The notes under the pieces were generated by a model. That model made no database searches, was not told the DNA's origin, and saw nothing but the letters and a program-made list of their open reading frames with translations. A stretch of 64,000 nucleotides of DNA from Patescibacteria group bacterium (lineage in GTDB: Bacteria > Patescibacteriota > Minisyncoccia > Phycocordibacterales > PALSA-1337), in NCBI GenBank assembly GCA_028865095.1, contig JAGWLA010000001.1, forward strand, positions 47,244 to 111,243, read 5' to 3'. Below, piece by piece: positions 38,465 through 39,903 of this stretch (its first letter is position 1; each line of letters begins with the position of its first letter). The translations under genes and the position numbers were made by a program.

Positions 38465-38794
38465 TCATCGGAGCCTGTTTTTGTATTCCTGGGCGAGGAG
38501 CTTCATGCCCAGCTTCTTCAGGACGTTCAGGACGACTTCTTCGGCGTTGCGCTTGTCGGCGTCGGACGATTCCTGGTCTATGAGGTTGCGGACATGGCGC
38601 GCCAGGCGGGGCAGGCTCCTCTCGTCCACGGCGACGCCGCTCGCTTCCAGGATGTCGCGGAGGTCGTCGCGGATCCGCAGAGCCTTCTCCTTCGTCATGC
38701 CCTTGTCCCGGACGGCCGCGGCTTCGCGCGTGCGCATGTCGTCGATGGCCTCCTGCTCCACGCGCTTGAAGTCTTCGATGAAATGGGGGATCAT
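38465..38794 (-). CDS. Hypothetical cytoplasmic charged protein, translationally coupled to the sortase gene
   Basis: ATGA overlap with the sortase stop. Start taken at MIPHFIEDF. Confidence 0.45.
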   Translation of the reverse strand: MIPHFIEDFKRVEQEAIDDMRTREAAAVRDKGMTKEKALRIRDDLRDILEASGVAVDERSLPRLARHVRNLIDQESSDADKRNAEEVVLNVLKKLGMKLLAQEYKNRLR

Positions 38795-39432
38795 CTTTTT
38801 TCGTCGAGCCGGGCGGTGACGACCAGCCTCTGGTCGTATGTCCTCTTGTCGGGCACCCATGCGCCGCCGCAGGTGATGAGCTCGATATATGAGCCTACGG
38901 CGCCGGCGGGGCCGGAGAGGACGTATGAAGGGAGGCCGCCGTATCCGTAGGAAGCCACATCCGTGACCGTGAAGGAGAGCTTCGCGCCGGACCGGGTCAC
39001 GACCTCTATGGCGTCGCCGCGCCGCGCCCCGCTCAGCTTCTTGAAGACGCCGGCGAGGCCGAGGCCGTTGTCCACGTGCCCGTCGATGATCGCCGTCCCT
39101 TCTTTGCCGGGGATCGCGGAATGGTCATACCATGCGACGCTGGTGAAATCGTCGGGCGTCCCTATGCTCCCCGAAGCCGTGGTCCCGACGTCTTCGAAGG
39201 GGGCGTCGATGCCGAGCGAGGGGATGATCAGCCTCGAAGGGTATGCCTCGAGCGTCGCCGCCGGCACTTTCTTCTCTGCAGCCGTCGCGGAGAGGACGTC
39301 CTGGGCCGCTGACCCGTCTAACGACCCGTCAGGCCGGTATATCGCCGCATACGAGAGGGTGCGCGCGAACACGACCGCCGCAGCGATCGTGAGCGCGCCG
39401 ACCGCGTATGTCGTTTTTCGCATCCGAGCCAT
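38791..39432 (-). CDS. srt: Sortase (class E/F-like cysteine transpeptidase)
   Basis: N-terminal TM anchor, catalytic His in TAIIDGHVD, TLxTC-like ELITCGG, conserved Arg in RLVVTARL. Confidence 0.8.
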   Translation of the reverse strand: MARMRKTTYAVGALTIAAAVVFARTLSYAAIYRPDGSLDGSAAQDVLSATAAEKKVPAATLEAYPSRLIIPSLGIDAPFEDVGTTASGSIGTPDDFTSVAWYDHSAIPGKEGTAIIDGHVDNGLGLAGVFKKLSGARRGDAIEVVTRSGAKLSFTVTDVASYGYGGLPSYVLSGPAGAVGSYIELITCGGAWVPDKRTYDQRLVVTARLDEKR

Positions 39433-39435
39433 GCT

Positions 39436-39903
39436 TTATGCCCGCTGCCGCCAGCTCTCGCGGGCGAGCGCGCCTACCACATATGAGGCTCCGGCCGCCA
39501 TCACCAATCCCGAGACGAGAAGGATGAGCCATTGCCTCGATGCGTCGCCGCCGGCGCCGGTATTGGGAGCGCTCGCGGGGATGAGGACCGAAGCGGCATA
39601 CCCGAGCGCGACGCCGGCGGTGCCGTTCGGGTCATGCACCGCGCTCCCGCCGTACAGGCCGATAGCGGGATCGTAGTAGACGCCGTTCCCGTAGTAATAG
39701 ATCTTCGATGCGGCAGCCGCATCCGACTGGAGGTAGTACCACCCGGCCGGAAGCGCGGAGGAATTCGACGCATTGACCTCCTGCCCGCTCGCATTATAGA
39801 GGGCCGGCATGAGGGCTTGGACTTGCGCGTCGGCGGCTGCGGCTCCCGCGAGCGCCGTCACTGCGAGGAGCCCGTTCACGATGAAGTAATAGGGTGTTCT
39901 CAT
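39436..39903 (-). CDS. Small secreted Tyr/Gly/Ala-rich protein with a C-terminal sorting-signal-like tail (candidate sortase substrate)
   Basis: Signal peptide MRTPYYFIVNGLLAVTALAGAAAADA. C-terminus SAPNTGAGGDASRQ, then the hydrophobic WLILLVSGLVMAAGASYVVGAL, then the basic ARESWRQRA. Immediately upstream of the sortase gene. Confidence 0.5.
   Translation of the reverse strand: MRTPYYFIVNGLLAVTALAGAAAADAQVQALMPALYNASGQEVNASNSSALPAGWYYLQSDAAAASKIYYYGNGVYYDPAIGLYGGSAVHDPNGTAGVALGYAASVLIPASAPNTGAGGDASRQWLILLVSGLVMAAGASYVVGALARESWRQRA

Follow-up and report, generated by a model that had tools for sequence, protein, structure and literature searches.

A sortase gene and its secreted partner beside rplE

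We analysed a window of 64,000 nucleotides (GC content ~62%) from the metagenome-assembled genome of an uncultured, ultra-small Patescibacteria group bacterium (GenBank assembly GCA_028865095.1, contig JAGWLA010000001.1, positions 47,244 to 111,243), focusing on a minus-strand locus in which the gene for a 155-amino-acid (aa) secreted protein precedes a sortase gene. Between positions 38455 and 41841 the minus strand carries, in order, a gene for a 606-aa protein with PKD and FN3 domains, the 155-aa partner gene, the sortase gene, a 109-aa open reading frame (ORF) and a hairpin, with 117 bp between the PKD/FN3 gene and the partner gene and 3 bp between the partner stop codon and the sortase start. 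This unit as a whole converges on rplE, whose end lies at 38446. An earlier description made from the letters alone (here, the sequence-only reading) had placed a sortase with a catalytic His, the Cys of ELITCGG and an Arg directly downstream of a 155-aa protein with a signal peptide, and had described a tripartite C-terminus containing APNTG on the latter; both descriptions proved accurate, the ORFs lying at the positions it gave.

The partner gene (39436-39903, minus strand), taken from the ORF list and aligned with 14 homologues of 44-62% identity, encodes an N-terminal hydrophobic signal ending ADA|QV, a domain of ~85 residues rich in Tyr, Gly and Asn, a disordered linker and, at the C-terminus, a sorting signal. 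The predicted Sec signal peptide occupies residues 1-26 (39826-39903), as judged from sequence reading, the homologue alignment and a helix at residues 3-24 in the AlphaFold2 (AF2) model; it would be removed after ADA, at residue 26, exposing an N-terminal Gln. Consistent with this cleavage site, the aligned proteins all have A26 and nearly all have Q27. At the other end, APNTG (residues 112-116; nt 39556-39570) forms the first part of an extended motif, A-P-N-T-G-A-G-G (residues 112-119; 39547-39570), and is followed by a membrane helix (residues ~125-146, from a hydrophobicity scan and the AF2 model) and the charged tail ARESWRQRA, which has three Arg and one Glu (helix and tail together, 39439-39531). 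The window protein thus has all three parts expected of such a C-terminus: pentapeptide, hydrophobic helix and basic tail.

In the AF2 model, residues 31-88 form an aromatic-rich core of four short strands with block-mean predicted local distance difference test (pLDDT) values of 75-89, residues 90-119, which include the motif, are disordered, and residues 117-154 are helical. The protein matched no Pfam or NCBIfam family, and a fold search against the PDB gave no meaningful match (best E-value 7). Searching the family profile against 1.84 billion representative proteins returned 201 proteins at E<=0.001. The Tyr-rich domain family itself comprises 57 cluster representatives at E<=1e-10, some of them with tandem Tyr-rich units (two or three matched stretches), and most of the other matches cover the C-terminal 45 residues only. 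The unit (YYYGNGxYYDP…YGGS) also occurs as tandem repeats in proteins P0219, P0139 and P0144, with 18 matched stretches in the 1116 aa of P0219. From its composition the Tyr-rich domain could plausibly be a ligand-binding surface module.

The sortase gene (38791-39432, minus strand) encodes a membrane-anchored enzyme of 213 aa with a single N-terminal membrane helix. It matched the Pfam Sortase family PF04203 with an E-value of 2.6e-15 (56.7 bits against a gathering threshold of 26.6). The catalytic residues His119 in IIDGHVD (codon 39076-39078), Cys188 in the TLxTC-like ELITCGG (38869-38871) and Arg202 in QRLVV (38827-38829), assigned by triad alignment, are all invariant in 28 relatives. The AF2 model (pLDDT 86.3) has the eight-stranded beta-barrel sortase fold, and Foldseek matched it with a probability of 1.00 to many solved sortases, with classes C, A, D and E matched about equally (E ~1e-9 to 1e-8, <=23% identity). 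A sequence search against the PDB returned nothing at E<=0.01, and a profile search only distant class C and D matches, the best being the class C enzyme 8t28 (E 1.5e-6); no class F structure appeared among the sequence, profile and fold search matches.

The sequence-only reading had proposed a profile search to decide between classes E and F. The NCBIfam class F model (NF033748) scored the enzyme at 109.8 bits (E 9.6e-32; curated cutoff 166), compared with 22.8 bits for class E. Class F was likewise the top class for all 28 members of the clade, none of which reached the cutoff (best E-value 1.7e-42), and NCBI names the window enzyme class F. An Asn has been reported in place of the catalytic Arg in actinobacterial class F sortases (PMC8703055), a substitution absent from the present clade, where Arg202 is invariant. 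Because class F ranks first yet scores below its curated cutoff, the enzyme is, by its profile matches, a real sortase that is closest to class F and best called class-F-like rather than a curated member.

An extended PNTG-x-GG signal linked to class-F-like sortases

The 14 homologues all keep [AV]PNTG-x-GG, with P113, N114, T115, G116, G118 and G119 invariant, whereas the linker preceding the motif varies in length and sequence. We derived a broader consensus from 162 proteins (the best 150 of the profile search plus the original 14, minus two duplicates), of which 156 have the tail. Among these 156, the first motif position is V in 86, A in 38, L in 12, I in 8 and T in 8; the positions that follow are P (156), N (144), T (154), G (156), any residue, G (153) and G (150); and the two residues ahead of the motif are P in 136 and G in 122. 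At 61 partner loci described below, the first position is A in 17, T in 17, V in 15 and L in 6, and the third is N in 47. Leu is thus a rare first residue (12 of the 156 proteins, 6 of the 61 loci), and the window protein has Ala. The same tail is found on unrelated partner proteins beside related sortases, ranging from 58 to ~430 aa. Since the motif is invariant among homologues of only 44-62% identity while the adjoining linker is variable, and since the tail recurs on unrelated proteins, its conservation indicates that it is not a chance match. The suggestion that the sortase recognises an unusual xPNTG motif is therefore supported by comparative genomics; as first written, that motif was too short, the full form being PG-x-PNTG-x-GG.

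Curated models for sorting signals do not capture this tail. The window protein gave no match at E<=10 to TIGR01167, PF00746, NF033846 or NF041528, and the tails of its relatives fell below the cutoff of every curated signal model tested, the closest being Rumino_NPXTG (20.9 against 23.5). The two glycines raised the possibility of a GlyGly-CTERM signal processed by rhombosortase, or of an exosortase-type signal, which we rejected because the neighbouring gene encodes a sortase in 11 of 11 contigs; none of the GlyGly-CTERM or exosortase-type models reached its cutoff, with PGF-CTERM and VPLPA-CTERM appearing below threshold on one mini-protein. One locus (L022) has a motif variant in which Pro is replaced by Gly (TPGVGNTGAGG), in an ORF that ends 51 bp before the sortase match, and the upstream partner genes of L065 and L080 look frameshifted or truncated.

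The signal and the sortase are tightly coupled in both directions. Starting from the partner, we found that all 11 contigs checked have the partner gene adjoining a sortase gene. For the Tyr-rich family, represented by the window and four other contigs, the sortase gene lies in every case immediately downstream on the same strand, and all six mini-proteins, which were retrieved solely by the tail profile and independently of sortases, have an adjacent sortase gene (five downstream on the same strand, one convergent). The other flanking genes vary among these 11 contigs. Starting from the sortase, we used the sortase alignment to scan a single genome for each species, a set without the genome of the window itself, and recovered 80 loci, all labelled Patescibacteria or 'bacterium' save one short contig labelled Bacillota. 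At 61 of the 80, the immediately upstream same-strand gene encodes a protein whose C-terminus combines xP[N]TG-x-GG with a membrane helix and a basic tail; a further locus has the VGNTG variant, two have apparently disrupted copies and three have a partner within a few kb on the opposite strand.

Across 1.19 Mb of DNA from the sortase loci, every sorting-type tail found had a sortase gene next to it or at most a few kb away, and no alternative LPXTG-type substrates were detected. One assembled genome contributed two loci (L017 and L050), each with its own partner, and L004 (6242-9969) has two tandem pairs within 3 kb, in which a 146-aa APNTG protein and a 119-aa TPNTG protein are each followed by a sortase. 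Judged by gene order, the conserved unit is the two-gene pair of sortase and partner only.

Sugar-related genes accompany some pairs. A GT87 glycosyltransferase gene lies between the two pairs of L004, and genes for glycosyltransferases, nucleotidyl-transferases or polysaccharide deacetylases flank the pairs of L085 (6-2932), L090 (2261-2947) and L088 (1-395 and 4657-6132). These neighbours may mean that the Thr-rich partners described below are glycosylated, or may be coincidental. A second context was seen upstream of some related sortases (L010, L022, L029, L042, L048 and L059), consisting of an HExxH metallopeptidase-like ORF (…HE[FL]GHALGL…) and/or a small Cys-containing protein (…NPASTNC…GG.LEI…DGRVCEEWALFRDGTC); these loci mostly have no PNTG partner, L022 having the VGNTG variant.

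The bodies of the partners vary from the Tyr-rich domain of ~85 aa found in the window to Thr-rich peptides of 10-30 residues. Heuristic assignment of signal-peptide cleavage in 160 partners gave mature parts that begin with Gln in 112 cases and contain no Lys at all in 139. About a third (54 of 160) are <=30 residues long and ~39% Thr, for example QTTTPGTPDT. Many sortase-adjacent partners are precursors of 60-90 aa (such as P0191, P0226, P0229 and P0246, and those at L056, L024 and L043), from which removal of the signal peptide and sorting signal would leave a Thr-rich peptide of 10-30 residues starting with Gln.

Genes around the pair

The 109-aa ORF downstream of the sortase (38465-38794, minus strand) encodes a charged protein without a signal peptide, and its ATG overlaps the sortase TGA, so that the ATGA overlap noted by the sequence-only reading is confirmed. 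It matched no family above cutoff in Pfam or NCBIfam. The terminator-like hairpin at 38455-38482, a stem of 12 pairs followed by a T run on the minus strand, marks the end of the minus-strand transcription unit and is located 9-36 bp beyond the point where the convergent rplE gene stops. Upstream of the partner gene, the PKD/FN3 surface protein (40021-41841, minus strand) has matches to the Pfam families PKD_4, fn3 and Pur_ac_phosph_N; on inspection its C-terminus (...LTTAPVI) has neither a membrane helix nor a sorting signal. This is the FN3 protein that had been called 'giant': its position upstream on the same strand is correct, but the adjective exaggerates its size of 606 aa.

We asked by tblastn which of these neighbours recur at 84 related loci (L001-L084, in which L001/L005 and L002/L006 are duplicate fetches). 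The sole match for the 109-aa ORF was in L001/L005 (52% identity), the nearest relative, whose sortase is 74% identical to that of the window. The PKD/FN3 protein had full-length similarity in L001/L005 only (two segments, 55-57% identity), with short FN3- or PKD-domain matches to the other loci. We thus rejected both genes as members of the module; from this distribution they are lineage-specific neighbours outside the conserved two-gene unit, and the cassette does not continue into them as a conserved unit, as had been proposed. A link between the PKD/FN3 protein and CPR_pilus_PamR was also rejected, as the score (36 bits against a cutoff of 300) reflects FN3 resemblance of a general kind; the Pam pilus relies on a chaperone and donor-strand exchange and not on a sortase.

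The cassette sits in a gap in the ribosomal protein cluster. Genes for S3, L16, L29, S17, L14, L24 and L5 (35654-38446) end at rplE, and the cluster restarts with S5 (46292), SecY (47465), adenylate kinase and Map (stretch 46292-50196). The gap holds the minus-strand sortase cassette, an extracytoplasmic function (ECF) sigma factor gene (42138-42674), a gene for a DUF5667 protein (42667-43773) and unannotated ORFs. The cassette adjoins rplE in L001 too, where a fragment of an RVT_1 reverse-transcriptase gene (7496-7868) lies at the contig end beside the ribosomal cluster. The ECF-type sigma factor region of the window (42138-43773) is divergent from the FN3 gene, and in L003 (6596-7894) a gene for an ECF-type sigma factor is directly upstream of the partner gene; this proximity in the window and L003 could point to regulation by envelope stress.

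Elsewhere in the window, two large surface proteins of 1161 aa (12805-16290) and 1260 aa (20202-23984) have PKD, LamG and FN3-like domains together with PG_binding_1 and no sorting signal. Because PG_binding_1 domains take the place of a sorting signal, this arrangement suggests that the large surface proteins are attached non-covalently, with the sortase reserved for its small neighbour.

A probable dedicated sortase-substrate pair in Patescibacteria

Gene order, the three-part C-terminus, the extended motif, the catalytic triad with the sortase fold and the tight genomic coupling are established directly, and the 155-aa protein is probably the single substrate of the adjacent sortase. We consider it likely that the two genes form a module, widespread in Patescibacteria, of a dedicated sortase and a cognate substrate with a variant sorting signal, in which the recognition element of the sortase clade is the extended signal PG-[A/T/V]-P-N-T-G-x-G-G and not LPXTG. 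In the proposed route, the 155-aa protein would be exported by Sec, lose its signal peptide after ADA and remain membrane-bound through its C-terminal helix and Arg-rich tail. The sortase, anchored by its own N-terminal helix, would cut A-P-N-T|G-A-G-G between T115 and G116, with Cys188 forming a thioacyl intermediate, as expected from sortase chemistry and the intact His/Cys/Arg triad, and the Tyr-rich domain of ~85 aa would then be moved to an amine acceptor, most likely a peptidoglycan precursor. Peptidoglycan is taken as the default acceptor, and a cell wall is expected since other surface proteins of the window carry PG_binding_1 domains.

The position of the motif in a predicted disordered segment just ahead of the helix favours the dedicated pair, and several observations weigh against it. 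The window protein ends in a tail of only weak basic character; for ~13-16 of the 80 related sortases, the fetched DNA contains no recognisable partner; and the only characterised class F sortase, from Propionibacterium acnes, uses LPXTG. In addition, many partners would leave only a Thr-rich peptide of 10-30 residues, which is odd for protein display. As a tentative idea, and one we hold to be rather doubtful, the role of the sortase may be not classical display but decoration of the envelope with short, possibly glycosylated peptides, or production of a processed peptide.

The conservation of PNTG-x-GG could also be explained without cleavage, if the C-terminus were a plain membrane anchor, the motif a structural hinge and the sortase an enzyme acting on other proteins. 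Curated sorting-signal hidden Markov models (HMMs) do stay below threshold, and a scan of the 64-kb window found no other PNTG tail. The sequence-only reading had held that a lack of other PNTG tails would make a plain anchor the better explanation; that rule is not valid for a module of one sortase and one neighbouring substrate, since a single PNTG protein per sortase is what such a module is expected to have. With the motif invariant on unrelated partners and with a sortase as its neighbour in all 11 contigs and at 61 of the 80 loci, and with no LPXTG-type alternatives in the sortase-flanking DNA, we regard the plain anchor as extremely improbable. Polymerisation of the small protein into a pilin-like fibre is also very unlikely. 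Such a fibre would account for a first motif residue other than Leu, as in the class C pilin signals IPQTG and IPNTG, for the class C enzyme 8t28 as top PDB sequence match of the sortase profile and for a small, abundant gene adjacent to a sortase, but the family has no conserved Lys and, because 139 of 160 mature parts contain none, the nucleophile of a pilin motif would be unavailable. Tip and base pilins are lacking, each sortase being accompanied by a single partner gene; the HMM result is class F-like rather than C; and the predicted N-terminal Gln could cyclise and so block head-to-tail joining. The pilin alternative of the sequence-only reading is thus unlikely, and its interpretation as a whole is supported in part.

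A different fate for the product would leave recognition of the motif intact: the partner might be processed with its product not placed on peptidoglycan, through hydrolytic release, cyclisation or transfer to another acceptor such as a glycan, lipid or protein. The short, mostly Gln-initiated, Lys-free and Thr-rich peptides left by about a third of partners would suit this outcome, as would the glycosyltransferase and polysaccharide-modifying genes beside the pairs of L004, L085, L088 and L090 and the reliance of the large surface proteins on non-covalent PG_binding_1 domains. To our knowledge, however, the acceptor used by characterised sortases is in every case a cell-wall precursor or a pilin Lys. 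The folded domain of the window partner fits surface display, and the glycosyltransferase neighbours, present in only 4 of 11 contigs, could be a coincidence; we judge a product away from peptidoglycan unlikely, though a serious alternative.

How the dedicated pair relates to known systems depends on which feature is compared. Class F sortases have been characterised solely through SrtF of Propionibacterium (Cutibacterium) acnes, a housekeeping enzyme for LPXTG, whereas the window sortase belongs to a clade paired one-to-one with a PNTG-x-GG partner. In Actinoplanes, a 2026 study described two class F genes beside proteins that combine a signal peptide, a membrane helix and a basic tail but have no recognised pentapeptide; its authors viewed these neighbours as possible substrates and the physiological role of class F as unknown (PMC13251363). 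The window enzyme resembles class F in its top-scoring class, its N-terminal helix and this pairing, to which the data from the Candidate Phyla Radiation (CPR) add a clear motif; it differs in scoring below the cutoff and in its invariant Arg where actinobacterial class F enzymes are reported to have Asn (PMC8703055). With the LPXTG signal (TIGR01167/PF00746), the window-type signal shares the three-part layout and Pro, Thr and Gly at equivalent positions, but it starts with A, T or V (Leu in ~8-10%), has a nearly fixed Asn at position 3 and is lengthened by PG on its N-terminal side and by x-GG on its C-terminal side.

Class C pilin signals, known as IPQTG, IPNTG and FPKTG, are similar in that the first motif residue is not Leu and the gene adjoins the sortase; the window module differs in having no pilin-motif Lys, no lid-type class C HMM signature and a single partner gene. 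The closest parallel in organisation is the SrtB type of operon, in which a specialised sortase lies beside its own substrate with a non-LPXTG motif. SrtB and IsdC of Staphylococcus aureus are such a pair, with the motif NPQTN, and SrtB of Clostridioides difficile recognises (S/P)PXTG (PMC4155245). The window sortase is of another class, however, with no iron-uptake genes nearby and with partners that are often tiny, and the PNTG module is confined to Patescibacteria among the recovered loci.

Sortases are present in more than half of CPR genomes (PMC6744442). Our literature search, which was not exhaustive, found no report of a motif recognised by CPR sortases; papers on PNTG motifs were limited to LPNTG and IPNTG in Firmicutes, and those touching on CPR or Parcubacteria sortases to general remarks. 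The principle is not new, as motifs without Leu and dedicated sortase-substrate operons are already known. What is new is an extended signal missed by the curated models tested, its pairing, one-to-one and near-universal, with a class-F-like clade throughout Patescibacteria, and the mini-protein partners.

A conserved motif tied one-to-one to an enzyme offers a directly testable substrate, and PNTG-x-GG adds an orthogonal recognition sequence to those available for protein ligation by sortases. If decoration with short peptides, or a processed peptide product, were to prove true, class-F-type sortases would have in these partners their first defined class of natural substrates. For the biology of these organisms, the module suggests that these bacteria, which live on the surfaces of other cells, have a surface component attached by a covalent bond.

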